Shown: piece after piece, positions 8,528 through 64,000 of the stretch
Numbering within the stretch: position 1 is the stretch's first letter
Layout: each line of letters begins with the position of its first letter
Virus record (IMG/VR): IMGVR_UViG_3300030108_003689
Location: 10,613-74,612 of that record
Strand: one strand, 5' to 3'
DNA length: 64,000 nucleotides
DNA from: a virus
Translations under genes and position numbers: made by a program
Notes under the pieces: model-generated
Databases searched by the model: none
Told to the model about the DNA's origin: nothing
What the model saw: only the letters and a program-made list of their open reading frames with translations

Positions 8528-8540
8528 GTTACACTACCGC

Positions 8541-15988: not shown

Positions 15989-18900
15989 CTATTGTTCATT
16001 GTCGATAGGAGCAGTACGCTCCAGAATTCTTTGTTGTGCTTCATTGCGTCTAATAGCTTCTGCTGACTTCTTAGCGTGTTGTTTATATTTCCAGTACGCC
16101 AATTTTTTCCAAGTTTGAGGGTGCCAAGCTGAAAAACCTATAGTTCGGCCAATTTCAGTCGGGTAAAATTGGTCAGCATAAACATTATATGTCGAACCGT
16201 CTTTGCTTTTGTAGGCTACTCCATACTTCCTGAGCGTAGGAATACTCGCGGTCGTTATTTGATCCGCTCGCTTGACGGCCTCTTTAGCACCATCCTTTGC
16301 CAATCCTGGCTCTGTTGGGCTGACATACGCTTGAGCTATTCCTGCATCATCGGGAACACTGACACGAATATCCTTCTCCTTGACGAAGCCGAGAACCTGA
16401 AGGGCTCCGATATTTGAAAGAATCGGCTTATCTGGATTCAAAGATTTCAGCGCATGCGTCAAATCCATCAACCCTTCGACAACACCCGCGTTCGCACGAG
16501 ATAGCGCCCAAAGGTTGTCTCCCATCCGACCAGTCACTGGAGTTTGCAAGTACTCCATCAAGAATAGATACGCTTTCGTGTTTTTGGCAACAAAGATGCC
16601 TCTCCCAGGCATTTCGATGTTTCGTTCGTTCACTCGTCGCTTTTCTTTATCGTCCCACACGAAACGAATGTTTTCTGGCTCGATGTACTCGATGCCCAAA
16701 ATGTCATGTAGTGTTCCGCCAGTAAACTCCAAATCGAACTCAACAAGCTCTGCTGGAACCTGTAAGGTTGCCCTTTCAAGCGGGAAGCCAAGACCAGGAT
16801 CAATGCCGAACGTTACGGCAGCCCCAAGACCTAACTGAGGCGCCAGTCTCGAGAAGACACCAAGCCTAGCTGCTCTGGAAGACTCATCTCCTCCAGTAAA
16901 TGGAAGCGCCAAGAAGAGTTCAAGCAACAAGCCAACAGAGTCACCAGTCAGCAAGAATGGAAGCCTGAATCTTTGGCCCATGATTTCGAACGGTAAAAAC
17001 GATCGATATCTATCCCATGGAGACAACATCAGGTCTGGGTCCTTGGACTCCGTAGCCTTCAACTGCGTGTTTCTCGCAAACTTAAGCTGAGTAATCACTC
17101 GGTCAGGGTTTTCCAACAATGAAGTGAACAGCAGCTTGTTTGCCTGCGAGAAGTATGTATAGAAAGCGAAATACCGCTTGAAGTAACTTGCCTCAGCATC
17201 ACTCAGATCAGAGTAATCCAGCATAATCTTGCGAGTTTTCTTGGCGGCATCGTCTAAAGTGGCACCAGCTTTAAGCTCTCTCACCAACACCTTTATTCTC
17301 ATGTAGGTGTCAATAGCGACGAATGATTCCCTATAGAACCTATGCGCTTTGCTGAAGATGTTTCCAGGCTTCAGAGACTGAGCCATGCTCATTCCGAATG
17401 CTGCACTCAAAAGCGCACTCTGTGGGCCAAGTGGAGCACCTATTAGGCCAAACATCGCTCCATTGATCCAAGTCGGATTTGCTTGAGTAAACCGCTCATA
17501 GAACTGATCGTATAAATTATTGCTGGCTAAAGCATCAGCAAACGCACTCTTCCAGCCATATCGATCAACAGTGTTCGCCAACATGTCGGCAGTAATGATT
17601 CGGCCATCTGGTAATACCAGCGGCTTTGTACGGGGCCTATGCGAGCCGTCACCGAAAAGTCTGGCCAGTGTTCCTGCTACAAACTGGATCTCTACGTCCG
17701 CAGCCTCTGCAATGTTTCTGACCAGCGGAGTGACCTCGGAGGCTACCCTGGCGCCTGTTCCTGGTGCTTCAAGAAGGTCTTGTGTCGCAGCTAAGACGCC
17801 TTGTCCGAGGTGAACCTGACTGAGACCACCGATGAATACGCCCATTCCGTAGCCCACCATAGGTAAGCCACCGACACCAATCAAAAGACCAGTGTAGAAC
17901 GTTCTTGGTGATACTAAAAACTCAGCCGCTCTTTGCCAAACCAAAGCCGCATTTGCAATCTGCTCTTTGATTCTTTGAGAGTTTTGCGTAGACGCATCTT
18001 TCAACTCAAGTTGATACTCGGCTCTACCAGTTCTACCCCATGTTTTTTTGAAACGAGCGTTCGGATACGTTTCTTGAGCCCAGCTTTCAAGCTGATCAAC
18101 CATGTTCTTAGGCATGATGAACTGCTTGTCACCAATCATAATGATTTCAGCGGTGCCGTCATCAATACGAATACCTGCACGCTTCAGTATCTGATCGGCC
18201 TCATATTGTGCTGACTTATCAATACGGGTGATAACGTCGGAGTCTGGCCTTTTTGCTGATGGCTTCTCGGTAGGCCCGTACATGTCTTTCACGGGCTTCT
18301 GCGCGATTCTGACCTTTCGTCCAAACTGCAGATCACTGAACCCAGCCACTTCATCGGACTTACTCAGGGTACGATCGATGTAGAACAGTACTCGATCTAC
18401 GTACTTGCTCCTACTGATGTTGATTTCACCTTTAAGATCAAGATTGTTTGTTATTGATCTGCGCGACAAGTCGTAACCATTTTCGGCAAGCTCTCGGGCC
18501 AAACCGAACCGAACATCATCGACTTTCAACATGATCATCAGAGCCATCAAGGCTTGATTCAAGTCTGGAGTCTTTGTAGAGTACTTCACTCCGAGTTGAT
18601 CAGCGATCGGCCTCGATACTCCCTCGATGATTTTACCCATCAAGCCCAGTTTCTTGCTGTACTGGAATACTTGTCGTGGCGTCTGCGCTTCTGGTGCGCG
18701 TCGGATCTTTTTAGGTGTTCCGATATCCAGCAGACCCTTGATGTCACCTCTGTAGAACTTTTGATATATATCGATCACTAAAGGGTCGTTCAAATCGAAT
18801 TGAGTGGCTTGCTTGATAGCAAGAATCTTTTCGAAGACATTGGTAGAAAAAGACTCAACATACTGCTTCTTTTCTCGCAGTCCTTCGTGAATCACCTGGA

Positions 18901-24900: not shown

Positions 24901-26293
24901 CTTTTCCAGAAGCATATGAATGAGATAAAATTGAAGCTAAAGCTCTTTTACTACGCAATTGCGATAAAGCGGTTCCACCAATTGCGGCTGCTTGAACGGT
25001 TTCGATAAAATTGGGATCATTTTTTGCCCAATCAATAAAGTTGCTCAAAACTTCGGAATCGCCAATCTTGTCGGCAACACCAAAAGCTTCTGCGGCAGCA
25101 ACAGACCTCGATATTAATGCAGCACGAGCCTCAGCCGATGAAACCTCTAGCTGATCTGCAATGTCGTTTACGGTGCCGAAAGCACTCAACATGCCTTTGG
25201 CCAAGTCATAGCTGAACTGACCAGCCCTACGAGCGCCTGCTATATCGGCTTCAGGTCCACCTTCGTAGCTGTGCCGTTCTGCGTCTAGAATCTTTACACC
25301 CATGGCCCCCATGGTGTGTCCACTTGCATAGCCTACGACGCCACCAACTAAACCACCAAACACCCTGCCTTTAGTTTTGAAAAGCTTTTCACCAAATGCA
25401 GCACCACTTTTTCCGAGCGCTTTCGCTTGCTTATACCCAAGCACGGCCCCAGCAGCGTTGGCAGCGATGTCTACGTCTTCGTGAGTAATCTTGAAGTCTA
25501 AAGCTTCACCTGGGAGATCGTATGTTCGTCGCTCCTCCTCAAATGGAGTGTACGTGAACTCGAACAATTCCGTCCCTTCTTCGTCGGCCTTCTTCTGAAG
25601 CTCTACTCTGACCTCTTCTTCGGTCTTTCCTTCTCCCCTAAGCTTCTCGGCCAACTCCTTATTCGTGTACTGAATTGATCGCGACTGAACCAGTTGCTCG
25701 GCGTCGATCAACTGCTCTGGACGAATGCCTTTGAAAAATCCAATGAAGCTATCAAGGTATGTCTCTTCTGACTCAAGCAAGGCCATTTCTGCGGCCTCAT
25801 GTACCTGATACATGTAGGCAGTAGGCGCGTCTTTTAAAAGACGAGAGGTGTTGAACCCAGTTGCGTCACCAGCCAGCACCATATTGGGTTTTGATTTTTC
25901 TACTGTTTCATTGATCTCGTCTTCGATGATCTGATCGATGTCTACAGTGACTGGGATCTCTCCCCTTTCTTTCTGCGCTTCAAGCTCCTTCCTTCTGGTG
26001 TCTGAGCCTTCTTTGAGTGCTTCCCGCAGAGCGATCCGCCAGTTGGTTGTCGCCAGTTCCGAGGCGTCCTCGGACTCATAAAGAGGAGCCTCAACGGTTG
26101 TTTGAATCGGTACAGTTTTGCTTGCTTTTAGTTTAAGCTGCTCTTCGCCTGTGGAGTCGACAACAACGTCTTCAATGGCCTGAGCTTCGATCGGGTCATC
26201 AATCGGCTCGAACTCAAGCTCTATCTCTTGTTCGGGCTCGGGCTCGGGCTCAGGTTCAACCTTGTCTTCTTCGATTTCTTCAGGCTCAGCCAC
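15989..26293 (-). CDS. Giant (3434 aa) internal virion/ejection polyvalent protein
   Basis: Single long ORF after ejection-like genes; zincin motif TLWHENGH...HEQFAEAW; HhH glycosylase-like segment; C-terminal DYSDLS..E..YFKRYFAFYTY. Confidence 0.85.
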   Translation of the reverse strand: MAEPEEIEEDKVEPEPEPEPEQEIELEFEPIDDPIEAQAIEDVVVDSTGEEQLKLKASKTVPIQTTVEAPLYESEDASELATTNWRIALREALKEGSDTRRKELEAQKERGEIPVTVDIDQIIEDEINETVEKSKPNMVLAGDATGFNTSRLLKDAPTAYMYQVHEAAEMALLESEETYLDSFIGFFKGIRPEQLIDAEQLVQSRSIQYTNKELAEKLRGEGKTEEEVRVELQKKADEEGTELFEFTYTPFEEERRTYDLPGEALDFKITHEDVDIAANAAGAVLGYKQAKALGKSGAAFGEKLFKTKGRVFGGLVGGVVGYASGHTMGAMGVKILDAERHSYEGGPEADIAGARRAGQFSYDLAKGMLSAFGTVNDIADQLEVSSAEARAALISRSVAAAEAFGVADKIGDSEVLSNFIDWAKNDPNFIETVQAAAIGGTALSQLRSKRALASILSHSYASGKDKLTDLEQTAVEVALGIDTSGEKSAGQQFAEVLAEIQTELKETPEFREAANLAREEEIKDLSEQLTRARRKREPEYKDWDAIQYFEDIDLGVHNPSDKNKKLWVKSWLYEQSYNELNPDIKGEQPNVDAFIEFVKLDMAMGGKEYHGNPKIDATLEAIREGDNKAAVQQLLNSMPLRFVNQFRQSNSAGIYQMPTTDQVEKWARDNAKFLEEKVGRKSTREIQRTMQSLMLKKGGSLQYAPTLFGELLQWAALIPTVAAETDVAVDFKDFPDTLLPVVETLGLPTVVGTPAGVDLLEGLGIRNPESTLQSRIRARRKSGTGGFQVGYEELMLAKGFERGSPEFNLAQNLGFGLDMLNLEKYIGRAVGNVGRVGANAIPAGKVFMSEHPANRAALTKRRLLQNTDFDRTEDPTVANHKLLKQNAQAELNEGPNPLDRMDAAERELFSDILIATGRNPDEVFAAFQEAAQVSKYVRRQSEKITRAVDTNDIIVLKNSPEYKALLADVNDLVQAGRIKADDAARFMSMLEAQATRIADATDTPYRSAAEVLGGLRITTNRPARPGARFMGKGLEEVDETPENAFSQPLGRDNSLSRIRAIMDDLNIEETDPVFKADLEKKFGKSNLEDFSDAERLELKDRLFKAQMKVEKPAVVKVDRKKLAAEKKKYQAKTHSGVPDPLTRKNPSRKKFKEKPVPKGTNTKNAAASFEKADNHTELLDGRNPILSDEDWNQWWGGITDTKQVLRPPLKLRTYANPESLAAELNRLTPEQKKRADGGMELVEGLGNLYNTGIAEANVTAQLLAWAILSRSLSAFPHESAFLDIFLNSPPASVFQKNLDGFIRSAVEGTFDAKMMLEYDVWVGGVHRQRAADKMLADGDIDQATHTLFVGRDADTINDLLNRNVIDEDQADRFKTQLLPALADNKKANEKITETMVDARKDAAALLREEKITPDEFGKLVGFAPALRIEGAGNPAAANLRAFGKNFLSQSSEILPEGHPYAGQTKLAAWHSILLDQSISGQQARRLFHQIYQSSGIDNKVISFMLLAAGRTDVIVIDRIQANHFWGQAENLLGDGVLRRDGTQMDLYEGFSKPTSDASWKKWLKNPRPYSASRGLADVLSGGRGAILYEAIESLLLGSIDEAYRLAGREGEGSIGRLHWETWVINSGQEVGHDTLAVILKQALGYDDPAVGAYVSEGKFGMFRYGIKYAVMPDGQQTFVMATQDGVNYVFDAAAYSDFFGEIKRHKERVKVEDRVIPKGWSIQNEKFENTPWYHRASVDRDNLDKLIRRYGRRATDNENVALDRYSSGTGELRPDSGRARDAAGAESDLLNPGNKDLRRTGLGEDQTKDPVEPTVLRLVEDGDPDTRFQRKEGVPLGYFEYDQRTRKAIINLFEKGDLDTLWHENGHFMATLMGREFTDKLFRYFDNELMDDGTRSLTDLGHEQFAEAWRYYRRVRDNPNGFVRRLMDELWISLHNLWSRIRKKPGLLPNEVRQYWDLEFGEAPKDRRNVQAITNAALNKRPKYTKLRATQQERILYSPDADKARKRVAMELGFDSETMHSLLGDRKQNRIRFETDLNTGERQRVLERSYDPREYDAIDAGLEVYALIKNTAFRKSLANKPMTPVGSGRYHVPVAILKTITDKSTNRFIDALGMDPETITKQIEQPNRSGLNSLADPDTIPDGVTDVDILSYRNRFAARFFNESNEQINKRVQETGFIVLDDRAQAGLKTLIQEIGNQPEADLIPFSLLDPDVNLRLISVDEYNTIRNVVTDIVATPLNRRSRNTTHPGYLMRMASFFENREQFEGIGEALRKIAETTRKKKEISEMTTDPNMVEILDGYGRMIMNAGKSIIRLANDPELKAIDTLYDFFQYDVSLHTPRVNLSSVRSLFEIVGTLDGSIQKMEAKAAARVAEAEEAGKPIPTTYDPFDLDDAALGKMSPGGGVTLQEIGRKIALMQDLLDGPYGMTPREREAINQLRIFNERLKYAQDAAEFTTTDRATIADAIQVIHEGLREKKQYVESFSTNVFEKILAIKQATQFDLNDPLVIDIYQKFYRGDIKGLLDIGTPKKIRRAPEAQTPRQVFQYSKKLGLMGKIIEGVSRPIADQLGVKYSTKTPDLNQALMALMIMLKVDDVRFGLARELAENGYDLSRRSITNNLDLKGEINISRSKYVDRVLFYIDRTLSKSDEVAGFSDLQFGRKVRIAQKPVKDMYGPTEKPSAKRPDSDVITRIDKSAQYEADQILKRAGIRIDDGTAEIIMIGDKQFIMPKNMVDQLESWAQETYPNARFKKTWGRTGRAEYQLELKDASTQNSQRIKEQIANAALVWQRAAEFLVSPRTFYTGLLIGVGGLPMVGYGMGVFIGGLSQVHLGQGVLAATQDLLEAPGTGARVASEVTPLVRNIAEAADVEIQFVAGTLARLFGDGSHRPRTKPLVLPDGRIITADMLANTVDRYGWKSAFADALASNNLYDQFYERFTQANPTWINGAMFGLIGAPLGPQSALLSAAFGMSMAQSLKPGNIFSKAHRFYRESFVAIDTYMRIKVLVRELKAGATLDDAAKKTRKIMLDYSDLSDAEASYFKRYFAFYTYFSQANKLLFTSLLENPDRVITQLKFARNTQLKATESKDPDLMLSPWDRYRSFLPFEIMGQRFRLPFLLTGDSVGLLLELFLALPFTGGDESSRAARLGVFSRLAPQLGLGAAVTFGIDPGLGFPLERATLQVPAELVEFDLEFTGGTLHDILGIEYIEPENIRFVWDDKEKRRVNERNIEMPGRGIFVAKNTKAYLFLMEYLQTPVTGRMGDNLWALSRANAGVVEGLMDLTHALKSLNPDKPILSNIGALQVLGFVKEKDIRVSVPDDAGIAQAYVSPTEPGLAKDGAKEAVKRADQITTASIPTLRKYGVAYKSKDGSTYNVYADQFYPTEIGRTIGFSAWHPQTWKKLAYWKYKQHAKKSAEAIRRNEAQQRILERTAPIDNEQ

Positions 26294-54727: not shown

Positions 54728-55680
54728 TTGGCCATGTTCTTGTTGCGAAATGTGCTGAAGTGAAACGGATCATGACAATCATTCCATTCAGGCCAAGATA
54801 CGCATCGCAGAATCTCGTCTACCTCGGACAACTCCACACGCACCCATCTGGCCTCGCATCCTTTAGACGCAACAAACGACAGCGCTCTTGGTAGAGAGTC
54901 TGGATCGTTCAAGTACTCGACCTGTGCCCGCTTCCAAAACTCTTGTGTGTGCTTGTGAGTTCTTCTTGTATGAAGCCTCAGATATGGCCCCATCTCTGGA
55001 GTAGGCAAAGACATCGCAACTCTATGATGTCTTTCCAGCATCTTCTTGAGTTGATGGTATTGACCATTCGGCACAACTGGACCATTCGACATGATGTAGT
55101 GATGCAGAAACCTAAAGGTAGTCCATGCCCATCTTGGCTTGTCTGATGGCATAGATAAGTGACCCTTGTACGGATCGTACGTCACACGACGCTTATCTCT
55201 CTCGGTCTGCAGCAAAACAGCAAATGCGTACTTGAATAAACGCCTTGGCGTAGCGAATGCGCCCCTCAGCACAGCAAGCCTACCGCTTGGATCACATATG
55301 GCCACTTGGTAGTCATTACATGTAAGAGACCATTCGCCTGACTCGAGAGCCTTCTCTCTTGCCTCCTCAGCCAACGGCCAGTCAATCTCACCAGACTTGT
55401 AGTTGGTATTCATGCTTGCAGTCTCAACAGGACGCAAGACATCCAGAAACCTTTCCGACAAGCCGCTATATTTGACCACTACGTCACCTGACTTGAGATG
55501 ACTCTGCGACTTTTCAGGTATGGCAGTAAGCCGAACGAATCGAACCTTGTCAGCAGCAACAGGCACAGGAAGCTCTTCTAAATAAGAATCGATTTCATCA
55601 GGGTTTGTTACTGGAACACCAAGAACGCCATCGATTCCCTTGGCTGGAAAACGACGCGCTAAACACACATAGTCAGTCAT
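54718..55680 (-). CDS. Hypothetical protein
   Basis: 320-aa ORF with GGAG RBS directly behind a sigma70-type promoter. Confidence 0.75.
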   Translation of the reverse strand: MTDYVCLARRFPAKGIDGVLGVPVTNPDEIDSYLEELPVPVAADKVRFVRLTAIPEKSQSHLKSGDVVVKYSGLSERFLDVLRPVETASMNTNYKSGEIDWPLAEEAREKALESGEWSLTCNDYQVAICDPSGRLAVLRGAFATPRRLFKYAFAVLLQTERDKRRVTYDPYKGHLSMPSDKPRWAWTTFRFLHHYIMSNGPVVPNGQYHQLKKMLERHHRVAMSLPTPEMGPYLRLHTRRTHKHTQEFWKRAQVEYLNDPDSLPRALSFVASKGCEARWVRVELSEVDEILRCVSWPEWNDCHDPFHFSTFRNKNMAKWN

Positions 55681-55697
55681 ATTTACTCCGAGACCGG

Positions 55698-55726
55698 AGT
55701 CTATATTTGTACAAACACCACGTCAA
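55698..55726 (-). promoter_or_regulatory. Sigma70-type promoter (leftward)
   Basis: TTGACG-17 nt-TAGACT on - strand. Confidence 0.7.
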
Positions 55727-55933
55727 CCCTGAGCTTTGTAGATTTACTATCACTATCATTTCCCCAGGGGGGGACTTCGTCCCCCCCCAGCGCTGCGAGC
55801 CGCCACCGGCAGCCGCGATGGCCACCGCCTCTCCCCCCGCCGCGACGAGGCGAGGCTCCGCCCTGACCCTGGTCCGGGCCTCCGGTTCACCCCTCGAAAA
55901 ACCCAGGGCAAAGGCGGGTTATGGCGTATGCTT

Positions 55934-56389
55934 CTACATATCGTCACCTCCACAGGGGGGGCAGGCCATGGGGCCAGCACCGCCCACAGGGGGGGCACCG
56001 TCGCCGATGGCGAGGGCACCAGCCACCAGGGCGGCACGGGCACCAGCCACCAGGGCTGAGGCCTTACGGCGGAACCACCGCCCAGCAGCACCAGCCGCCG
56101 CGCGCGCGCCATTAAGAAGTGCAGCCACCACAGGGGGGGCAGCATCAGCCTCGGCACCGTCAACGATGGCGACCGGGGCAACCTCAGCAGCAGGGGCCAC
56201 CGGGGCAGCCTCGGCACCGTCAGCAGCAACCACCACCAGGGGGGAAGCGATGACGACGACGCGAGGGGCACCGGGGACCCGAAGCTGAGGAACCTTGGCC
56301 CAGGCCACGAATCGACCCGTCGCAGCACACCGAGCCCGTTGCCGGGGGGCGGCTGCGTCGAGGTCTGCAAAGGCAAGTGCGAAGGTCAT
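55934..56389 (-). CDS. Ala-rich low-complexity protein, possibly leaderless from a sigma54 promoter
   Basis: In-frame peptide repeats (DGAEA x2, ALVAGA x2); ATG about 2 nt after predicted TSS; overlaps other GC-rich ORFs, so uncertain. Confidence 0.45.
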   Translation of the reverse strand: MTFALAFADLDAAAPRQRARCAATGRFVAWAKVPQLRVPGAPRVVVIASPLVVVAADGAEAAPVAPAAEVAPVAIVDGAEADAAPPVVAALLNGARAAAGAAGRWFRRKASALVAGARAALVAGALAIGDGAPPVGGAGPMACPPCGGDDM

Positions 56390-56400
56390 GGCCCCTTCTT

Positions 56401-56418
56401 ATGCAAGTGCCGTGCCAA
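56401..56418 (-). promoter_or_regulatory. Sigma54 (-24/-12) promoter, leftward
   Basis: TTGGCAC-GGCAC-TTGCAT, a perfect match to TGGCAC-N5-TTGCW. Confidence 0.75.
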
Positions 56419-56466
56419 TCTTTGGCACACCCTGACGGGGGGCTCACCTGGCAGCAAACGGGCCAA

Positions 56467-56811
56467 AAACGCTGTACGCAAAGCCATTTTGGCACAACCA
56501 AGGTATGGCACAGGACTTGCATGGGGGGAGAGCATTTTTCCCTTGCCACGTCAACACCACGACTCGAAACCCAAAATGCTAAACGCTGTACGTCTCTGCA
56601 TTTGTCGTCCTTCGAAAAGTAGACCACGACATGTGTGTCGCGGTTTGGCAGGGTCTTCCAAACGTTGTACGTCTCTGCATCGAAATATTGCGTACAGCGT
56701 TTAGGCCATTCCTGACCACGACATATATGTCACGGTTTGGCATGGACTGTCTGTGCCAAATCAGGCCCCTACTGGTGAGTAGATTTTCAAAACCGCTGTA
56801 CGTCTCTGCAT
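56467..56811. repeat. Dispersed repeats AAACGCTGTACG(TCTCTGCAT) x5 and GACCACGACATRTRTGTCRCGGTTTGGCA x2
   Basis: First family at about 56467, 56581, 56660, 56689-56702 (inverted), 56791; second family at 56622-56650 and 56714-56742. Confidence 0.85.
56506..56522 (+). promoter_or_regulatory. Sigma54 (-24/-12) promoter, rightward 1
   Basis: TGGCAC-AGGAC-TTGCAT, a perfect consensus match. Confidence 0.75.
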
Positions 56812-56820
56812 TGGCACAGT

Positions 56821-56837
56821 TTGGCACGGTATGTGCT
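56821..56837 (+). promoter_or_regulatory. Sigma54 (-24/-12) promoter, rightward 2
   Basis: TTGGCACG-GTAT-GTGCT with exact GG-N10-GC spacing; predicted TSS about 56848. Confidence 0.6.
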
Positions 56838-56847
56838 ATATAGGTTG

Positions 56848-57433
56848 CCGACCGGCGGGACACTCCCCGCCCCGCTCTTTGACATCGTCAACCGGCTCCT
56901 TGCCAACACCAAGGTTGGAGCCGGCGAAGTGGAGGACATCAACACTCGCCCCCTTAGTTGTAGGGGGGTCGGACTCAACAAACAGTCCCCATCATCTGAT
57001 GACGTACCAGAACCGACCGGGCTCAGCCCTACTGCCACGGCAGGAACATCGGGGATTATCGGAAGCCAGACACCGACAGCGACCCCTGAGGGTAACAACC
57101 TCAGGCTGACCGGGTAGACGGCACTCAGTGAGGGGCTGGCCCATGAGAGCAAGCGAGGCCAGGAAGAGTGAGCGCAACAGCCCCTTTGAACGTGGGGTGG
57201 CGAAGACCGGGAGACAAGACCGGGAGCCAAGCACCGATGTCCGCAACCACTTGGGAATACTCCCTCAACACTCAACCACACTGCCGACTTGGAGGCAGTC
57301 CGGGCAACCCTTCACCCGGTCAATGAACTGGTCATCTCAACGAGGGCATCGGCAGCCGTGGCTGCTGCATGCATGGACCGCCAAACGCTCCCCCCTTCCA
57401 CTCCCGGAATGCAGGGGGGGCGCTGCAATCGTC
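56848..57433 (+). ncRNA. Candidate large structured non-coding RNA
   Basis: No credible ORF/RBS; dense local and long-range stems; bounded by a promoter and a hammerhead cleavage site. Confidence 0.5.
56854..56884 (+). promoter_or_regulatory. Hairpin plus boxA antitermination signal (rrn/nut-like)
   Basis: GGCGGG-acactc-CCCGCC followed by CGCTCTTTGACA (E. coli rrn boxA is TGCTCTTTAACA). Confidence 0.55.
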
Positions 57434-57485
57434 CGGTGCTGATGCTGCACCGCTGATGAGGGCCCACAGCAGGGCCGAAACGATT
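57427..57485 (+). ncRNA. Type III hammerhead ribozyme 1 (cleavage after GUC at 57433)
   Basis: Stem III AATCGT/ACGATT; stem I CGGTGC-TGATGCT-GCACCG; core CTGATGA(+G); stem II GGCCC-ACAGCA-GGGCC; GAAA. Confidence 0.9.
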
Positions 57486-57616
57486 CACATAGCCGTCGCC
57501 GGGGCTCCTCCAGCGTCAGACGAGAGTCGAGCCCTGGCGGGCGGCGGACCTCCCCCGGTTCGCTGCTCCGCCGCTCCGACGGCCAAGCACCTGCAACCCT
57601 CAAACCCAGAGAAACC

Positions 57617-57853
57617 AAGGTTCCCCGGTACTTTCCGGGCAGCACCTGGAACCCGAAACCCGACGCCGGATGGCTGGGGGACGGGCTGAACCTGGAAGGG
57701 TCCACTTTCACCTGGAACCCGAAACGCGATTATTGGGCCTCGAACGCCGGATATCGCGTGGCCGATGGTAGTTTCAAACCGGTAGAGAGCGATGCGCCGC
57801 TGACCCCCTACGCACTGAACCTCGCCATATCGCGCCTCTATTCGAGCCTGTGA
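57617..57853 (+). pseudogene. Coding-like frame lacking a canonical start codon
   Basis: 78 codons with high GC3 and TWNPK repeat; AAG where a start is expected. Confidence 0.35.
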
Positions 57854-57860
57854 GCCTCAA

Positions 57861-58055
57861 CCTGCCCCGACCTGCCCCGACCTTTCCCGCCTTTTTTGGT
57901 GGGGTTAGGGCAGCGATTATCCGGGGATGAAGCTCAACTATCATCGAGCAGGGGGTGAGGTTAGGGCAGAAAGCCCCCAACTTTTTCTCTCTCTCCCCCC
58001 TATGGGGTTCTCCCCCTTGCTCTTCTTTCCCTGAGGTTAGGGCAGGTTAGGGCAG
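57861..58055. repeat. Iteron-like GGTTAGGGCA x4 plus inverted variant x2 around a pyrimidine tract (candidate origin)
   Basis: Copies at 57903, 57959, 58035, 58045; CCTGCCCCGA x2 at 57861-57880; CT tract 57981-58000. Confidence 0.7.
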
Positions 58056-58150
58056 CAGCGAATAACCCAGGTACAACCGTTACTTTCAATCAACCCTGAC
58101 GGTCCAACCGTCAACCCCAACCGGGAGCCACTGGCCCCAACGGACACCCC

Positions 58151-58558
58151 ATGACCATGATTAGCAGCAACATCACCGCCCGGCGACCCACCGGAGTCGG
58201 ACTCCTCCCCTGGCAGGCACGCAGTGACGCCTGGACCGCTCAGATTCACTACCAGGGGCGCAGCATGACCGTGCCGTTTTTCACCGGGTCCGCGCATGCT
58301 CACCCCACAACCTGGGACGTGGTCTACTGCCTGCTCTCTGATGCCCACTATGTGATGTGGGGCCAGACCCTTGAAGAGTTCTGCTCGGACTTCGGGTACG
58401 ACCTTGACGACCCCGACAGCCGCGAAGCGAAGGAGGCCACCGCCACGTATCGCCAGACGGTCAAGCAGACTCGCAGCCTCAAGCGGTTGCTCGGCGATGA
58501 CTTCGAGCGGTTCATGGCCATGGACCTTGAAGAAGAACTGACGGCGCACTGCCAATAA
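58151..58558 (+). CDS. Conserved phage early hypothetical protein
   Basis: VPFFTG...PT..DV..CLLSDA...EEFCSDFGYD.D motif; high GC3. Confidence 0.8.
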   Translation: MTMISSNITARRPTGVGLLPWQARSDAWTAQIHYQGRSMTVPFFTGSAHAHPTTWDVVYCLLSDAHYVMWGQTLEEFCSDFGYDLDDPDSREAKEATATYRQTVKQTRSLKRLLGDDFERFMAMDLEEELTAHCQ

Positions 58559-58566
58559 CCCCCACC

Positions 58567-58582
58567 GGGGGCTTCGGCCCCC
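58567..58582 (+). other. C(UUCG)G tetraloop hairpin (repeated at about 58834)
   Basis: CACCGGGGGCTTCGGCCCC appears after two consecutive stops. Confidence 0.75.
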
Positions 58583-58596
58583 ATTGGATACCCACC

Positions 58597-58818
58597 ATGT
58601 CACGTGTTTACGAAGACTCAAACGGCAACCGCCGAGAGCACGACCTTCGCGGCGTGTACGTTATTCACCGCGACGGTGACAAGGTCACCGGCCACTACAT
58701 CAGCCGCAGCCGTGGTCGCTTTCACATTCACAAGTTCACCAACTGCACACTTGAATCGGTGGTTGAGCAAGCCGAGCGTCTCATTCATGAGCCGCCTGTC
58801 TACTTCCTGACCGCCTGA
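58597..58818 (+). CDS. Early hypothetical protein
   Basis: 73 aa, high GC3, flanked by UUCG hairpins. Confidence 0.7.
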   Translation: MSRVYEDSNGNRREHDLRGVYVIHRDGDKVTGHYISRSRGRFHIHKFTNCTLESVVEQAERLIHEPPVYFLTA

Positions 58819-58871
58819 ACCCCAACCCTCACCGGGGGCTTCGGCCCCTACCCCCTCACACTGGAGCTACC

Positions 58872-59309
58872 ATGTCAGCACTCATCAACGATTCCCACAT
58901 CTTCCTCAACTCAATGGCCCGCTTCGAGCCTGAGAGCCCCCTCGAAGAGGCCATGGGCCGCGACAACTTCGTCGAGATGGACCTTTTCAACGCTATGGCG
59001 CTCATGAGCACCAAACAAAAGGACATCCTCAACGAACTGGCGTTCAGGGGTGCCGAGTTCAGCCTTATCCGGGTCGCTCTTGGTAAGGGACGCGAGCGCC
59101 AGGGCACACTGAGGCTGTGTGTTCAGCGCAGCATCGCCTTCGACTCTGCTCACATCGACATCAGCCCCCGTGGCAAGGTGACCGGGATGGTGTTCGGCCA
59201 CCCATGGGCAACCGACAAGCGGAAGGCGCTGGGCGACGTGAAGGTGAAGAGCCTCCGCGACCTGACCAGCCACTACGGCGAGATGGGCTTGGATAGACTC
59301 GATGACTGA
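58872..59309 (+). CDS. Early hypothetical protein
   Basis: GGAG RBS, high GC3. Confidence 0.75.
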   Translation: MSALINDSHIFLNSMARFEPESPLEEAMGRDNFVEMDLFNAMALMSTKQKDILNELAFRGAEFSLIRVALGKGRERQGTLRLCVQRSIAFDSAHIDISPRGKVTGMVFGHPWATDKRKALGDVKVKSLRDLTSHYGEMGLDRLDD

Positions 59310-59352
59310 CAGTCTCTGGATAGTTCCCGAACAACTCAACCATGGAGACCCC

Positions 59353-59706
59353 ATGCACATGTTCTACCTCACGAGCAGGGCCGATAACACCGGCCCCCTG
59401 CTCGACCTGCTGCCGTCGTTTCACCTGAACAACGACACCCCAGACACTTCCCTGGTGGATGCTGGCTGGCGCTATGCCCAGTTCGCCTACACCGGGGCCC
59501 GTGTGCTGGTCCGGTGGAAGCAGAACCGCCGATGGCTCAACGCCTGGAGCAACTTCGTAACCGACTTCGAGGTCCGCCACGTTGACACCGTGGTTGACTC
59601 GGATGGCGTCATCTGGGCTGGCCTGGGTGAGCCTCACAACCTCAAGCTGTATGCACTCGCCGACCGTGTAGCGGAACGCGAGGGCTATCCCATCCTCTCT
59701 AAGTAG
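59353..59706 (+). CDS. Early hypothetical protein
   Basis: ATG 59353 after GGAG (alternative start 59302). Confidence 0.7.
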   Translation: MHMFYLTSRADNTGPLLDLLPSFHLNNDTPDTSLVDAGWRYAQFAYTGARVLVRWKQNRRWLNAWSNFVTDFEVRHVDTVVDSDGVIWAGLGEPHNLKLYALADRVAEREGYPILSK

Positions 59707-59746
59707 AACCCCCCACCCTCTCTCAAACAAACAGGAGCCCATCACT

Positions 59747-60697
59747 ATGGCTAAGTTCGACCCATACAAAGTAATCGCAGACACCCTCATCGCCTCCATC
59801 GAGGCAGGCACCCTCGCATGGCGCTGCGGCTGGAAGAAGCTGGGCGGCGCACTCGTTCGCCCCGTCAGCGGAGGCAGCGGCAAGCCTTACAACGGCATCA
59901 ACGTGCTGCTGCTCTGGGGCTCTGCTCAGGACCAGGGCTTCTGGTCGCCGACTTGGCACACCTACAAGGGTGCCCAGGGCAAGGGCGGCCAAGTCCGCAA
60001 GGGCGAGAAGGGCACCAAGATTGTGAAGTGGCTGTTCCTGCCCTACAAGGACCCCAAGACCGGCAAGCCCCAACTTGACGCCAACGGTGAGCCCATGACC
60101 TATGCACGGCTCAGGCTGTACACGGTCTTCAATGCCTGCCAGATTGAGTGGGCCGAGGGCAGCGAGCACGCCCCAGGGCCACGGCCTACGGTTGAGGACC
60201 ACGATGGCTCTCAAGCTGGCGACAACTTCGAGCAGGCCAAGGTCATCCTCGATGCATGGGCCACCGAGGTTGAGATTCGCCACGGCGGCGACCGTGCCTT
60301 CTACCGTCCATCGGATGACCACATCCAGTTGCCACTGTTCGAGCAGTTCGAGAGTGAGGCCGAGTACTTCTCGACCGCGTTCCACGAGGCCGTCCACAGC
60401 ACGGGCCACAAGTCCAGGCTGAACCGCTTCAAGAAGGAGCGCAAGGGCAGCTACAAGGATGCCTACGCATTCGAAGAGTTGGTCGCCGAGCTTGGCGCAG
60501 CGTTCCTCTGCTGCGATGCTGGTATCAGCCAGCCTGACGAGCCACGCGCCGACCACGCTGCGTACCTGAGCCACTGGCTCAAGGTCCTCAAGGGTGACCC
60601 CAAGGCCATCGTGTCTGCGGCATCCAAGGCCGAGAAGGCCGCCAAGCTGGTGCTCGCCAAGGCTGACGAGGCCGACCAGCAGATGGCCGCCAAGTAA
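59747..60697 (+). CDS. ardC: ArdC-like antirestriction protein (ssDNA-binding domain + zincin MPTase)
   Basis: GKPYNGINVLLLW, W.TYK.A...GGQVRKGEKG, YTVFNACQ, AFY.PS.D.I.LP, FHEAVHSTGH..RL.R, YAFEELVAELGAAFLC. Confidence 0.92.
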   Translation: MAKFDPYKVIADTLIASIEAGTLAWRCGWKKLGGALVRPVSGGSGKPYNGINVLLLWGSAQDQGFWSPTWHTYKGAQGKGGQVRKGEKGTKIVKWLFLPYKDPKTGKPQLDANGEPMTYARLRLYTVFNACQIEWAEGSEHAPGPRPTVEDHDGSQAGDNFEQAKVILDAWATEVEIRHGGDRAFYRPSDDHIQLPLFEQFESEAEYFSTAFHEAVHSTGHKSRLNRFKKERKGSYKDAYAFEELVAELGAAFLCCDAGISQPDEPRADHAAYLSHWLKVLKGDPKAIVSAASKAEKAAKLVLAKADEADQQMAAK

Positions 60698-60769
60698 TCT
60701 GTGAGAGGGTAGCAGTCCGCGCGGCCTGCTTTATCAAAGCCGCGCCCCCTTCAATCAACAGGAGCAATC

Positions 60770-61228
60770 ATGATCGACACTTTCAACCCCCTTGAGCTTC
60801 AGCGCGTCGAGGTCTACTGGAACCTCCACAAGAACCTGTGGAGCATCCGCAGCACAGCGACTGGCCGCCTGATACCGATACGCCCCCACCGTCAGAACCT
60901 ACACCTGATGTTCGTCAAGTGGGTAGTGCAGCCCGCTGGCCGTGCTCGTGTCCTCCGTGAGGGCCGTAAGAACGTCCATGCCTTCGCCCGTGGCTACCTC
61001 GTGCCTGATTGTGGCACCTTCAATCACTTCATGGTGGATGCTGAGGAGTACGCCGACGCTGACCCGCTCATGTACAACCCCTACAAAATGGACACCTTCC
61101 AGACTGTGGGCACCGGCAAGACGGTGCGCGAGTCCGAGAAGGCCTACCTCGACATGAGAGCAGGCCGCCCCCGCGTGTCCGCTGTTCGCAGCACCCCCAA
61201 CCCTTCACCCTTTGCACAGGAAGCATAA
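60770..61228 (+). CDS. Conserved phage early protein
   Basis: VYWNLHK..WSIR, V..AGR.RVLRE.RKNVHAF..G, YNPYK; AGGAG RBS. Confidence 0.8.
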   Translation: MIDTFNPLELQRVEVYWNLHKNLWSIRSTATGRLIPIRPHRQNLHLMFVKWVVQPAGRARVLREGRKNVHAFARGYLVPDCGTFNHFMVDAEEYADADPLMYNPYKMDTFQTVGTGKTVRESEKAYLDMRAGRPRVSAVRSTPNPSPFAQEA

Positions 61229-61503
61229 TGACTGACAACATCTCTTTCGACCGCACCTTCTGCATGAACCGTCACCACAACGACTGGGAGGAAGCGTGGC
61301 AGACGCTCGCCCGCCACTATTCGAACGCCCGCATGGCTGACAAGGTAAATGCCCCTTGCCCCTTCAGTGGCGAGTCCTGGCAGTACATGGGCAGCTACAA
61401 CAAGCCACAGGGCAACGTCCACACGTTCCGCCATCGCTGCCACCCTGGCATGGATGGCCAGCGCGTCAACGTCCGAGTGTTCATCCGGGGAGGTGAGATG
61501 TGA
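61228..61503 (+). CDS. Early hypothetical protein
   Basis: GESWQYMG...HTFRHRCHP motif; TAATG overlap. Confidence 0.75.
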   Translation: MTDNISFDRTFCMNRHHNDWEEAWQTLARHYSNARMADKVNAPCPFSGESWQYMGSYNKPQGNVHTFRHRCHPGMDGQRVNVRVFIRGGEM

Positions 61504-61907
61504 TTGCCCGATTCAAGGACAGCGTGAACGGCGGCGATGTCGTCGTCCAACTGAAGACCGGCCAGACCCTGCGGCACCACCGCTTCACACCCACCGATGA
61601 GGGGTATGACCGCACTATCATCGAGTGGGAATACGACGGGCACACGGTCACCCGTACCTACTTCAATGAGGGACGCGACTGCGACGGCTACATGTCCAGC
61701 CAGTTCGTCCAGTTCTGCCCTGTGGGCAGGCTTCGCTCGGAGACAGTGAACCGCCCGACTGGTGAACGGTGGGAAGCATTCACCGACTACGACGGCACCA
61801 CTGCCCACGAGTGTGTGACCACCTGGGAAGAGCAACCCGGCTGGCCCGCATGGACCGAGGACAGCCACGAGTACTACGACGCCAACGCTGTAGCCGCTGG
61901 CTACTGA
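61500..61907 (+). CDS. Early hypothetical protein
   Basis: GTG after GGAGG; PTDEGY, GRDCDG, D.NA.AAGY motifs. Confidence 0.75.
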   Translation: MIARFKDSVNGGDVVVQLKTGQTLRHHRFTPTDEGYDRTIIEWEYDGHTVTRTYFNEGRDCDGYMSSQFVQFCPVGRLRSETVNRPTGERWEAFTDYDGTTAHECVTTWEEQPGWPAWTEDSHEYYDANAVAAGY

Positions 61908-61930
61908 ACCCCCCCACCCCTGGAGCCCCC

Positions 61931-62026
61931 ATGACTTGGTACTGCTCTCTTTGCAAAACCTTCAATGCCCTTAACATCCTCCGCTGCCGCTGCTGTGGAA
62001 AGCATCGCGACGACAGCCGCTACTGA
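61931..62026 (+). CDS. 31-aa RanBP2-type zinc-finger microprotein
   Basis: MTWYCSLCKTFN...RCRCCG with GGAG RBS. Confidence 0.55.
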   Translation: MTWYCSLCKTFNALNILRCRCCGKHRDDSRY

Positions 62027-62052
62027 ACCCCCCCACTAACTGGAGAACCGAC

Positions 62053-62466
62053 ATGCCATGGACTGAAGAAGAGAAAGAGCAGCACCGTCAGCAAATGCGA
62101 GATGAGTATGCGAGAATCGCCGCAGAACTGAAGGCCGAGAAGGCGCGAGAGTGGGCGACCATTCCGCCCGAAGTTCTCGAAGTTCACAACGCCCTGACCG
62201 ATAACGCCCGGAAGGTCTACACGGACCCGGAAGAGTACGAGGCGATACGCCCGGTCCACACCTACCCAGAGGACTACTGGGAGGGCTCGGAGCGCAAGTA
62301 CACCGGGGCATGGGTCACCGGCAGTAACTACGAGGACGGCAAGGCCGTCATGGTCTGGAAGGACGGCGCGTGGTTCTACCACTCGACGCGGTCTGGTCAT
62401 CGGCGTCCGATGGAGGGCGGCCACGAAGAGGCGCTCGCGAATGCGTCAATCTTCTGGACTGGATGA
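62053..62466 (+). CDS. Early hypothetical protein
   Basis: GGAG RBS, high GC3. Confidence 0.75.
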   Translation: MPWTEEEKEQHRQQMRDEYARIAAELKAEKAREWATIPPEVLEVHNALTDNARKVYTDPEEYEAIRPVHTYPEDYWEGSERKYTGAWVTGSNYEDGKAVMVWKDGAWFYHSTRSGHRRPMEGGHEEALANASIFWTG

Positions 62467-62485
62467 GCGATGGCCCTTCGGGGCC

Positions 62486-62538
62486 GTGTCGGGGCGTGAT
62501 GCTCGCCCCCTGATGATGACCGAGCACGGTCGAAACAC
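62486..62538 (+). ncRNA. Type III hammerhead ribozyme 2 (cleavage after GUC at 62490)
   Basis: Stem III GTGT/ACAC; stem I GGGGCG-TGATGCT-CGCCCC; core CTGATGA(+T); stem II GACCG-AGCA-CGGTC; GAAA; intergenic. Confidence 0.9.
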
Positions 62539-62556
62539 AACCAACAGGAGCCCATC

Positions 62557-62760
62557 ATGAAGTACCCACCCGGAACCATTTTCACCGTCGGCTATCAACT
62601 CGAAAGCTGCTGGATGGTTATCCACACCAGCAAGGTCGAGGCCCGTAGCAAAGAAGAGGCCGTCAACAAGGTTGCGACTGACGTGCCCCGTTCCTACGGA
62701 CACTACGTCGATCGCATCCAAGGCACCCTTGGCCCCAAGAAGTCTGGAGGTGCGGCATGA
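62557..62760 (+). CDS. Early hypothetical protein
   Basis: AGGAG RBS just after hammerhead 2. Confidence 0.7.
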   Translation: MKYPPGTIFTVGYQLESCWMVIHTSKVEARSKEEAVNKVATDVPRSYGHYVDRIQGTLGPKKSGGAA

Positions 62761-63239
62761 GGCGCGACATCGACACCCTACGCTTCACCTTCCCGGCCCG
62801 CTCGGGCCGACCCATGGATGAAATCCGGTTCGGCCTGGAGGAGAACCTTGTGACGTTCTACTTCCGCCGCACTGGAACGGACACCACCGCGTACTGGATA
62901 GACCGCAAGGGTCTGGACATTGACGACTTGGACTTGATGGTGCTGGACTCAGTGTGCCCCTTGCGTAACCTTGGAGCACGGCAGGCCATCATGGACCTGT
63001 CGCGATACGCCCGCCACCTCCAATCTCAAGGCTTGGTGCAAGTCGGGAACTGTCGTCTCACCATCACTCGATGCGGGACAACCGGCGACCGGAGGTATTG
63101 CATGACCGGCCCGTCAGGGGTTCACACCCTCGACTTCGACAGCACCGACCCTAAACGACTGGAGGCCCACTGGCATGGCTTCCTGCACAATAACGGTTGC
63201 CCTCATTACAGGAGCCAGTGGAAAGCGCCCACTTCCTGA
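62757..63239 (+). CDS. Early hypothetical protein
   Basis: GGAGG RBS, ATGA overlap. Confidence 0.7.
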   Translation: MRRDIDTLRFTFPARSGRPMDEIRFGLEENLVTFYFRRTGTDTTAYWIDRKGLDIDDLDLMVLDSVCPLRNLGARQAIMDLSRYARHLQSQGLVQVGNCRLTITRCGTTGDRRYCMTGPSGVHTLDFDSTDPKRLEAHWHGFLHNNGCPHYRSQWKAPTS

Positions 63240-63318
63240 CCTATGTCCGCGTTTAGAACCCCTCTCGTTCTGTAGGGTGAGAGGCAAACCAAACAACCCC
63301 CGACACACAGGAGCCATC

Positions 63319-63468
63319 GTGAACGACTCAAGAAAAGCAACCGGATCCTTCCGGTTCATCATCGGCAAGCCTTGCAGGTTCTGGACCGACACAGTTGGCA
63401 ACGGCTTTCTCATGGACAACTGGGGCAACCTGCTTCCAGTTCCAAACATCAAAACAATCACCCAATAG
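63319..63468 (+). CDS. Small early hypothetical protein (49 aa)
   Basis: GTG after ACAGGAGCCATC, the same RBS cassette as neighbours. Confidence 0.55.
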   Translation: MNDSRKATGSFRFIIGKPCRFWTDTVGNGFLMDNWGNLLPVPNIKTITQ

Positions 63469-63478
63469 GAGGTGTATC

Positions 63479-63835
63479 ATTACACCCATCACTAATCGTC
63501 AAATGTCCGCTCGGCTTCGCAAGCTGGGCTTCCGCAAGTCCCGCTTCCAAATGAGCCGCAATGGTGTGAGCTTCGAGCATCCCGATGCATCGGCGCTGTT
63601 CACCTTCGGCAAGCACCCTGAAAGCAGCGTCATGGTCACCGCGCCCGACAACCCTGGGTGGTCGTTCGCCTTCCTGACTGAAGACACCTGGGACCGCATC
63701 CAGCGCAACCCTTGGGTAGTCCTGCCATGGGAGGAGCCCAAGGACGGGGTAGAGCAGCCCCTGTGCCACCGTGAGATTCTACTGTGCTGGGCTCGCGCCT
63801 TCGCCGCCATGCTCGCCGAGTCGGGTGAGGAATAG
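63479..63835 (+). CDS. Early hypothetical protein (ATT 63479 or ATG 63503 start)
   Basis: Perfect AGGAGGT at 63467-63473 precedes in-frame ATC/ATT; coding-like downstream. Confidence 0.65.
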   Translation: MTPITNRQMSARLRKLGFRKSRFQMSRNGVSFEHPDASALFTFGKHPESSVMVTAPDNPGWSFAFLTEDTWDRIQRNPWVVLPWEEPKDGVEQPLCHREILLCWARAFAAMLAESGEE

Positions 63836-63863
63836 GCCAACCGGCCCCCCCATACTGACAGAC

Positions 63864-63893
63864 TTGACACCCCGAACCAAACAAGTGTATAAG
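63864..63893 (+). promoter_or_regulatory. Sigma70-type promoter
   Basis: TTGACA-18 nt-TATAAG. Confidence 0.55.
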
Positions 63894-63902
63894 GAGATTC
63901 TG

Positions 63903-64000
63903 ATGAGCGATACACACACACAGCCCAAGGTTGACTTCATCCACAATCAAGTAGAGAACAGGCTGCAAAGCCTGCGCTCTCTTCTGGAGGGTGAGTACGC
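63903..64000 (+). CDS. Hypothetical protein, 3' truncated by window edge
   Basis: AAGGAG then ATG AGC GAT...; open to the end of the window. Confidence 0.6.
   Translation, partial: MSDTHTQPKVDFIHNQVENRLQSLRSLLEGEY

Follow-up and report, generated by a model that had tools for sequence, protein, structure and literature searches.

In bacterial rRNA operons, the leader carries a boxB hairpin, boxA and boxC and is served by NusA, NusB, NusE, NusG, SuhB and S4. The nut sites of phage lambda consist of boxA followed by boxB and require the phage N protein. The early region of T7 is transcribed from the host promoters A1–A3, begins with an untranslated leader, is cut by RNase III and carries the anti-restriction gene 0.3; T7 also supplies an RNA polymerase of its own. 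We know of no description of the T7 leader as a conserved structured RNA. In 2011, hammerhead ribozymes of prophages were found to flank short gene blocks, one of them with the anti-restriction gene ardA (Perreault et al. 2011, PMC3088659). These gene-flanking ribozymes are active both in vitro and in E. coli, and the authors inferred that they divide long phage transcripts into segments (PMC3088659). The same article discusses the "HHphage" hammerhead of haloviruses HF1/HF2, which directly precedes the opening ORF of an early polycistronic transcript; the mapped 5' end of this transcript lies at most 3 nt from the hammerhead cut (PMC3088659). Pseudomonas phage YuA reportedly has a sigma54-like promoter (PMC10914365, citing Ceyssens 2008).

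The locus described here lies in a window of 64,000 nucleotides, which is the whole stretch of DNA analysed. On balance, its source appears to be an uncultured marine podovirus-like phage of ~75 kb (the genome size is 74.6 kb), and the locus its control region with the 5' part of a rightward early-to-middle operon. No cultured phage has a TerL protein more than 27% identical to the one encoded here, and a search for a related bacterial locus found none. Divergent operons, one leftward and one rightward, meet in the control region. The features are as follows.

56402–56417, minus strand: sigma54-consensus site TGGCACGGCACTTGCA, an exact pattern match that faces the leftward operon (ATG at 56389)
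56467–56812, plus strand: repeat array upstream of the leader promoter
56506–56521, plus strand: upstream sigma54-consensus site P1, TGGCACAGGACTTGCA, a pattern match
56822–56837, plus strand: sigma54-type promoter P2, TGGCACGGTATGTGCT, immediately before the leader, with a predicted start at ~56848
56848–57433, plus strand: structured non-coding leader RNA of ~585 nt, its 3' end fixed by hammerhead 1
56854–56871, plus strand: 5' hairpin GGCGGG-ACACUC-CCCGCC, boxB-like by position
56874–56885, plus strand: boxA-like word GCTCTTTGACAT, with the core GCTCTTTGACA at 56874–56884
57424–57488, plus strand: hammerhead 1 (HH1), type III, predicted cut at 57433/57434, after C57433
57487–57550, plus strand: ACAUAGC word and ~55-nt hairpin, a conserved fold after HH1
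57903–58055, plus strand: four GGTTAGGGCA iterons ahead of the first ORF, where the sequence is untranslated
58151–62466, plus strand: nine to ten small early-type genes between the ribozymes
58567–58582, plus strand: GC-rich UUCG hairpin directly after a stop codon
58834–58849, plus strand: UUCG hairpin after a stop codon
59747–60697, plus strand: ArdC, within the early-type gene block
60770–61228, plus strand: L5 gp82-like protein, within the same block
62470–62487, plus strand: UUCG hairpin after a stop codon, just 5' of hammerhead 2
62481–62543, plus strand: hammerhead 2 (HH2), type III, predicted cut at 62490/62491, after C62490

The best joint explanation, to which we assign a probability of roughly 0.55, is a host-polymerase-dependent operon with a sigma54-type start, Nus loading, release of the leader by HH1 and a second cut by HH2. 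Within it, we infer the transcription start, the use of sigma54, Nus binding, cleavage in vivo and a role of the released RNA. Transcription would initiate near 56848 from the sigma54-type promoter, and the upstream repeat arrays are probably bound by an activator. The first 40 nt, a hairpin and then the boxA-like word, may load the host NusB/NusE complex, which would protect the polymerase from Rho termination across ~1.3 kb of C-rich RNA that is not translated. The rRNA operons solve the same problem in the same way. The following ~560 nt would fold into a conserved multi-helix RNA, and HH1 would cut after C57433. The released ~585-nt RNA would have a hairpin at its 5' end and a G/C-rich hairpin bearing a 2',3'-cyclic phosphate at its 3' end. 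The RNA 3' of the cut would have a 5'-OH, followed by the hairpins of the ribozyme itself, and would contain ardC, the anti-restriction gene, among other small genes. HH2 is predicted to cut again right after a UUCG hairpin, 66 nt ahead of the next start codon (ATG at 62557), and because of this second cut the segments could have separate stabilities.

Neither an RNA polymerase nor a sigma factor or a sigma54 activator (PF00158 domain) was detected in the phage, and the DxDGD motif was likewise not found in it, which is consistent with transcription by the host. Scans of the plus strand from 55800 to 64000 returned neither a sigma70-type promoter nor an intrinsic terminator, as is consistent with a single long transcript. 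The RNA data consist of assembled contigs, which cannot reveal RNA ends; one contig of 165 nt, from an oligo-dT library, spans the HH1 site.

In about 12 related marine contigs the elements follow one order, from the promoter through the hairpin and the boxA-like word to the long non-coding leader and the hammerhead; this was the refutation test set by the sequence-only reading, and the locus withstands it. The sequence-only reading had pointed to ~590 nt of structured, ORF-poor sequence here, and this stretch proved to be conserved, with covarying helices. It is non-coding: stop codons interrupt all forward frames between 56848 and 57433, substitutions lack codon periodicity, and indels among the relatives are mostly not multiples of 3. 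The leader is 91.5% identical to that of contig L070 and 86.5% identical to that of L034, the values for the neighbouring gene being 74–76%, so its conservation equals or exceeds that of the flanking genes. Compensatory changes were found in 43 of 160 proposed pairs, compared with 29 in shuffles and 10–23 in slid controls, and 85% of the cells can pair, compared with about 40% in controls. The z-score of the single-sequence fold is only −1.96. A search of 55500–64000 against Rfam 15 (GOLLD, ROOL, OLE, 6S, IMES and others; E ≤ 10) returned only HH2 and four chance-level matches, and the same search of five related loci gave no match at E ≤ 0.1. The leader is probably a new large phage RNA family.

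Alifold energies are equal for the plus and minus strands, and wobble counts favour the plus strand modestly. Folding thus cannot assign the structure to one strand, as would also be expected if the leader were merely a long 5' UTR or a DNA-level control region (a genome end, packaging site or replication origin), with hairpins kept for mRNA stability or DNA function, HH1 as a mere trimming device and a released piece without a role of its own. Such a region could also account for the iterons and other repeats in the same 1.7-kb gene-free stretch, for the L032-type relatives, whose long leader has no hammerhead, and for the divergent operons that meet at the leader, as they do at T7- and N4-like genome ends. 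However, conservation at or above that of the neighbouring genes extends across ~600 nt and is not confined to short sites, the covariation includes a long-range helix (56927–56940 with 57236–57252), and the ribozyme lies exactly at the 3' border of the leader in three leader types. We therefore consider this account unlikely and retain that of a structured RNA freed by HH1.

Promoters were sought with the pattern TGGCAC-N5-TTGCW, in which GG and GC are exactly 10 nt apart, allowing at most one mismatch. The three matches (0–1 mismatch) all fall inside 436 bp (56402–56837), and the window and the whole 74.6-kb genome contain no further ones. The two plus-strand sigma54-consensus sites proposed at 56506 and 56821 are thus present, at 56506–56521 and 56822–56837. 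Perfect sites equivalent to P1 occur in L076 (TGGCACGGACCTTGCA) and L060 (TGGCACGGGACTTGCA); the minus-strand site lacks a positional counterpart in L034 and the L047 group. The P2-type motif, TGGCACGG-N4-GTGCA with a variable spacer, is kept in L034, L070, the L047 group, L041 and L043, and, when L060 and L076 are included, ten variants retain TGGCACGG and (T/G)TGCA with a free spacer. In L076 and in the L032 and L033 types, the motif before the same leader is exchanged for other promoter-like sequences, namely TTGNNN-N17-TCTATT in L076 and L032 and TGGCACGGTTTGACGGG in the L033 type. The bipartite motif therefore recurs in several marine contigs, but the type of promoter is not kept throughout.

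The repeat array comprises AAACGCTGTACG(TCTCTGCAT) boxes (four direct and one inverted), two CCACGACA-N4-TGTCRCGG palindromes and additional TTGGCA words. These repeats resemble no nameable activator site. The palindromic and direct repeats sit 20–350 nt upstream of the sigma54-type motif, and in L034, L070, the L047 group, L041 and L043 the boxes accompany the sigma54-like promoter, whereas they are missing where the promoter differs. Sigma54 holoenzyme requires an AAA+ activator, and the repeats are candidate activator or operator sites.

The TGGCAC...TGC words may instead be operators bound by a regulator of the phage or the host, or may belong to sigma70-type promoters in which TTGGCA is the −35 element and TGnTATATA the extended −10. 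TTGGCA is indeed over-abundant, with nine occurrences in the 800 bp scanned, one of them within the palindrome GTGCCAA-TCT-TTGGCAC (56411–56427). Moreover, TGCTATATA at 56835–56843 resembles an extended −10 and lines up with TCTATT in the sigma70-like promoters of L032 and L076, and an activator-dependent promoter is awkward for immediate-early expression in a phage with no activator gene found. However, the spacing between the −35 and −10 elements would be wrong (10 or 19–20 nt), the plus-strand sigma70 scan was empty, and the full GG-N10-GC spacing is kept in ten variants whose spacer letters change. This interpretation seems to us a possible but rather doubtful one, and we prefer sigma54-type initiation at P2.

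The hairpin and boxA proposed at 56854–56884 are found as a hairpin at 56854–56871 and a word at 56874–56884, and they head every related leader. The hairpin differs in sequence in every lineage, and the word behind these unlike hairpins is invariant as GYTCTTTGAMAT in all ten aligned leaders. It begins ~26 nt past the predicted transcription start, and GCTCTTTGACA is the sole exact match to the family word (GYTCTTTGAMA) within the window. At other hammerhead loci, viral and genomic, 0 of 29 had a boxA-like word within 1.5 kb upstream. GCTCTTTGACA matches 10 of the 11 positions of GYTCTTTAANA, C4 included; this is the gamma-proteobacterial consensus (10.1101/091223). Position 8 is G across the phage family and A in that consensus. 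The plus strand has no second boxA (at most one mismatch) past 56885. The proposal that a single boxA antiterminates the whole polycistron is therefore doubtful, because the HH1 cut, 560 nt after boxA, would break the tether between boxA and the polymerase with no later boxA to restore it.

Both hammerheads, proposed with cuts at 57433 and 62490, were confirmed as type III. GUC, CUGAUGA and GAAAC are in register in each. A covariance model (R1) was trained on nine other phage hammerheads and HH2. With it, HH2 reached 81.8 bits, and HH1, which the training set did not include, reached 68.5 bits (E 4e-20); the genome gave no further hammerhead. Among nine class members, 98.5% of the cells pair (slid controls, 35–44%) and 12 of 15 pairs show compensatory, two-sided changes. 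All three helices covary; stems I and II are capped and stem III is open. Loop I of the subclass is invariably UGAUGCU, loop II contains AGCA, and an additional base often follows CUGAUGA. With Rfam RF00008, HH2 scored 32.9 bits (E 5e-4), under the gathering threshold of 48.5 bits, and HH1 was unreported; the extra base and the 7-nt loop I make the phage subclass a poor fit to the Rfam seed. HH1 and HH2 are real members of the type III class, with cleavage predicted from their sequences. HH1 is found at the equivalent place in L033–35, L047, L049–53, L070, L073 and L076. HH2 had been presented as part of the same system, but it is not retained across the relatives, being absent from L051 within the 5.2 kb downstream of HH1.

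The two ribozymes bound a 5057-nt block exactly. Hammerhead cuts leave ligatable ends, and a host RtcB-type ligase might join the 5'-OH to the 2',3'-cyclic phosphate, so that the same-strand pair would make a circular or spliced RNA of this block in the manner of a retrozyme. However, HH2 is not conserved, no RNA contig joins 62490 to 57434, although cover is almost nil, and such products were sought at prophage hammerhead clusters and none were found (Perreault et al., PMC3088659). We regard this outcome as very improbable and keep the reading in which the two cuts separate segments of one transcript.

Behind HH1, the sequence-only reading had proposed a three-way-junction RNA. The relatives keep the ACAUAGC word and one long hairpin, the junction being confined to the present copy; this element is common to all lineages, including those without a hammerhead, and is single-copy in the genome. 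No conserved ORF lies in the ~660 nt after HH1, up to 58150, and repeats similar to the GGTTAGGGCA iterons occur in L032. The genes of the 58151–62466 block are mosaic among the relatives. About ten early genes punctuated by UUCG hairpins had been described; the nine to ten ORFs are there, but the strong UUCG hairpins number only three, not one per gene. As intrinsic terminators these hairpins were rejected because no T run follows them.

The combination had been thought undescribed in a phage. This probably holds for the leader RNA family, which has no Rfam match, but ribozyme-flanked blocks (2011, PMC3088659) and the sigma54-like promoter of YuA (PMC10914365) precede it. Ribozyme-cut phage operons are thus already known, and the leader RNA family probably is not. 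It is a tentative, rather unlikely idea that the ~585-nt leader is a trans-acting RNA effector, or that its cyclic-phosphate end signals to an RtcR-type sigma54 activator. If so, the leader would be produced before anything else in the infection, would need no translation, and would be freed by its own ribozyme with its ends protected; its target might lie in the host, where it could, for example, titrate a defence or RNA-decay factor. Alternatively, its 2',3'-cyclic-phosphate end would feed back on the RtcR-type activator. Either would represent a new class of large phage RNA coupled to a sigma54 and boxA expression module.

Like the bacterial rRNA operon, the locus would begin its long transcript, structured and untranslated, with a hairpin and then a boxA or boxA-like word in the first ~40 nt, and the leader is subsequently cut, here by prediction, from the downstream RNA. 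The cut is made by RNase III in the rRNA operon and by a ribozyme here; in the rRNA operon boxA recurs past the first processing site, whereas the boxA-like word occurs once here, its position 8 differs from the gamma-proteobacterial consensus, and its Nus binding is putative. With lambda nutL and nutR the locus would share a boxA-type word beside a hairpin in a phage early transcript, but here the hairpin precedes the boxA-like word and no N-like gene was recognised. The T7 early region is similar in its tandem host-type promoters at the head of the genome, untranslated leader and processed (here predicted) polycistronic early RNA with an anti-restriction gene; it differs in using host RNase III instead of ribozymes and in bringing an RNA polymerase, none being found here. 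The YuA promoter has the same sigma54 −24/−12 pattern, but belongs to another phage group, whereas here two or three sites with upstream repeat arrays head an early operon. HF1/HF2 also have a hammerhead ahead of early polycistronic genes, but these are archaeal viruses with a variant core, and no long conserved leader or boxA is described for them. The locus also resembles the prophage clusters of Perreault et al. (PMC3088659), in which several same-strand hammerheads likewise bracket a short gene block including an anti-restriction gene and a ribozyme lies immediately upstream of a ribosome-binding site. Here, however, the anti-restriction gene is ardC instead of ardA, the ribozymes are set apart by UGAUGCU as loop I, the AGCA of loop II and a frequent extra base after CUGAUGA, and HH1 does not lie between two genes but ends a conserved non-coding RNA of ~585 nt.

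The record (74.6 kb), of which the window covers bases 10613-74612, is rated complete in IMG/VR. The plus-strand block that begins at about 56850 runs past the end of the record and resumes at its start. Its G+C content is 60% vs 48% elsewhere; the rise, from about 48% to about 60%, comes where the early block begins (window 56000-64000 plus the first ~4 kb of the record). Because this high G+C content crosses the record's end and carries on at its beginning, the genome is compositionally two-part. The features are as follows.

1-8800, plus strand: genes including helicase-primase, RecE and RecT
8831 to 56389, minus strand: genes for terminase, virion proteins and a 3434-aa protein
56848-57433, plus strand: putative leader RNA (~585 nt)
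56874-56885, plus strand: boxA-like word GCTCTTTGACAT, a single exact copy in the window
57424-57488, plus strand: hammerhead HH1
57903-58055: four direct GGTTAGGGCA iterons, 3' of the leader and 5' of the first ORF
62481-62543, plus strand: hammerhead HH2

No cultured phage has a TerL more than 27% identical to this one, and a blastn comparison of 56300-58100 with cultured phages gave no match. DNA of the phage is present in marine, estuarine and seawater metagenomes (13 studies). ArdC shows at most 44% identity to proteobacterial plasmid proteins, a faint hint that the host may be proteobacterial.

Both hammerheads were read directly from the sequence. Each has GUC, a stem I of 6 bp with the loop UGAUGCU, CUGAUGA followed by an additional base, a stem II of 5 bp whose loop contains AGCA, GAAAC, and an open stem III. 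Cleavage is predicted after 57433 and 62490, in agreement with the sequence-only reading. At the gathering threshold, the sole Rfam match was a tRNA; HH2 (62483-62541) scored 32.9 bits, under the gathering score of 48.5, and HH1 was unreported, also in E-value mode. A scan of IMG/VR with core words and free stems found the same subclass in 29 contigs, mostly just 5' of a ribosome-binding site, and a model from nine subclass sequences, HH2 among them, has two-sided changes in 12 of 15 pairs. This covariance model, R1, gave 68.5 bits (E 4e-20) for HH1, which was outside its training set, and 81.8 bits for HH2, which was within it; it found only these two in the genome. Members of the subclass are present in bacterial genomes as well, from many phyla, at loci none of which is related to this phage.

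Relatives were found through the 320-aa protein encoded 1.1 kb leftward, which is shared by 4 viral loci and by 38 from metagenomes, every one of them marine. When the 135-aa or the 151-aa neighbour was used alone to scan IMG/VR, the yield was 0 and 1 relatives, respectively. A hammerhead lies at the same place, ~1.7 kb upstream of the 320-aa protein gene and on the opposite strand, in contigs L033/L035, L034, L047, L049-L053, L070, L073 and L076. In L034, a second stem-II-like hairpin with GAAAC (GGGGCCCAUAGCAGGGCCGAAAC) stands directly 3' of the complete ribozyme (~2960-2990, minus strand) and has the appearance of a half hammerhead that was duplicated. The leader of L029 and L005 is of another type, 750-1000 nt long and likewise hammerhead-terminated, with a gene start directly after the ribozyme that resembles the one after HH2. 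The L032 type has a long leader without a hammerhead, and Rfam in E-value mode gave no match on the relatives lacking one, this type included. The DNA word GCCCCTNTGAACGTGGGG yielded a single additional match, L038, which is unrelated.

Several features suggest that the leader is a non-coding structured RNA. Stops occur in all forward frames in 10 of 10 sequences, substitutions against L047 are even over the codon positions (49/52/53), and indels are mostly non-multiples of three. Leader identity is 91.5% to L070 and 86.5% to L034; that of the adjoining gene is 74-76%. The consensus fold contains many hairpins and a long-range helix pairing 56927-56940 with 57236-57252. Two-sided changes were observed in 43 of 160 pairs of the ten-sequence alignment, while shuffles gave 29 and reached 43 in 0 of 500, and slid controls gave 10-23; this contrast is somewhat inflated, as the structure was derived from the same ten sequences. 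Paired cells amount to 85% vs ~40% in the controls. Folding of the single sequence gives a z-score of -1.96. Alifold energies are equal for the two strands, so that folding does not tell the strand, and the leader is assigned to the plus strand because of the ribozyme, boxA and promoter. A role as a CsrA sponge was rejected, because GGA (CsrA-type) motifs, counted by eye only, are apparently not enriched.

The hairpin and boxA that the sequence-only reading had placed at the leader's head were seen there and are kept in relatives: in the ten aligned leaders the candidate boxA word GYTCTTTGAMAT is invariant, and the hairpin 5' of it varies in sequence with its pairing preserved. The word fits GYTCTTTAANA, a published gamma-proteobacterial consensus, at 10 of 11 positions. 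No second copy follows HH1 or HH2, and none was found within 1.5 kb upstream of other hammerheads (0/29 loci).

The proposed sigma54-consensus promoters were likewise recovered as sequence motifs: TGGCACG-N4-TTGCW is matched with no more than one mismatch at three sites, all of them in 56402-56837, and nowhere else in the genome. The site before the leader has the form TGGCACGG-N4-GTGCA, which L034, L070, the L047 group, L041 and L043 all share; the spacers across relatives are TATG, TGTG, GGTG and GCTG. Perfect counterparts of the upstream site occur in L076 and L060. AAACGCTGTACG boxes and CCACGACA-N4-TGTCRCGG palindromes travel with this motif. A sigma70-like TTGNNN-N17-TCTATT takes the motif's place in other relatives that share the leader, so that the promoter type is exchangeable. 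In L033, L035 and L060, a ~300-nt low-complexity tract of CACACGCG-type repeats lies 5' of the leader promoter and takes up some of the divergent control region. Phage YuA is a precedent for a sigma54-like phage promoter. No sigma70-type promoter or terminator was found on the plus strand between 55800 and 64000. In the genome, searches for an activator, a sigma factor or an RNA polymerase of the phage's own were negative, as were those for a DxDGD motif, a sigma70-family domain and a T7-type RNA polymerase, the last without a positive control. The 3434-aa virion protein (15989-26293, minus strand) was considered as a phage polymerase; it has no PHROG family and no relative by sequence among solved structures in the PDB.

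Downstream of HH1, the three-way-junction RNA proposed earlier is not conserved in relatives. The conserved element is instead ACAUAGC with a ~55-nt hairpin (57487-57550), present in every lineage whether or not it has a hammerhead; it was found in L032 (two tandem copies), L059, L063, L068, L033-35 and the L047 group. A small protein in the open frame 57443-57853 was rejected: it has no start codon, stops interrupt the frame in relatives, and what they share is limited to a 20-nt patch. The patch AACGCCGGATATCGCGTGGCC (57743-57764) is conserved in several relatives, in a stretch otherwise neither conserved nor coding. The iterons could mark an origin or operator; in L032, similar repeats run in both orientations. 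Since the first clear gene begins at 58151, the untranslated span is ~1.3 kb. UUCG hairpins, said to punctuate about ten early genes, do follow stop codons, at three places and no more.

RNA data consist of contigs, which do not show ends, strand or level, and cover only two places. A contig of 165 nt, from an oligo-dT library, extends over 57282-57446 and spans the HH1 site. A 355-nt contig of a relative (~90% alike; word depth 27.8) from a marine metatranscriptome run covers 58603-58839 and takes in the 73-aa early ORF.

On sequence grounds, the layout is consistent with an early operon that the host transcribes and that begins with a structured leader, rRNA-operon-like, Rho-proof and released by a ribozyme. 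HH1 would release this leader from the early transcript, and HH2 would separate downstream mRNA segments. We favor a cis role, in which the leader would carry polymerase across the untranslated stretch and a stable RNA would be released; a trans role is possible.

The role of phage hammerheads is unclear, and the idea that they segment transcripts was put forward earlier for clusters of hammerheads in prophages, including a cluster around the anti-restriction gene ardA (PMC3088659). What is probably new here is the family of leader RNAs, with its constant association with boxA and HH1. This phage family offers a clean case for asking what the ribozymes do: one of them apparently sets the 3' end of a conserved, structured RNA of large size at the head of an early operon, where a boxA-like word and a sigma54-type promoter adjoin it. 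Should the leader have a function of its own, phages, from which few large RNA classes are known, would gain another. If it is merely a leader, the phage would copy the rRNA-operon solution for transcribing a long untranslated RNA, with ribozymes replacing host RNases.
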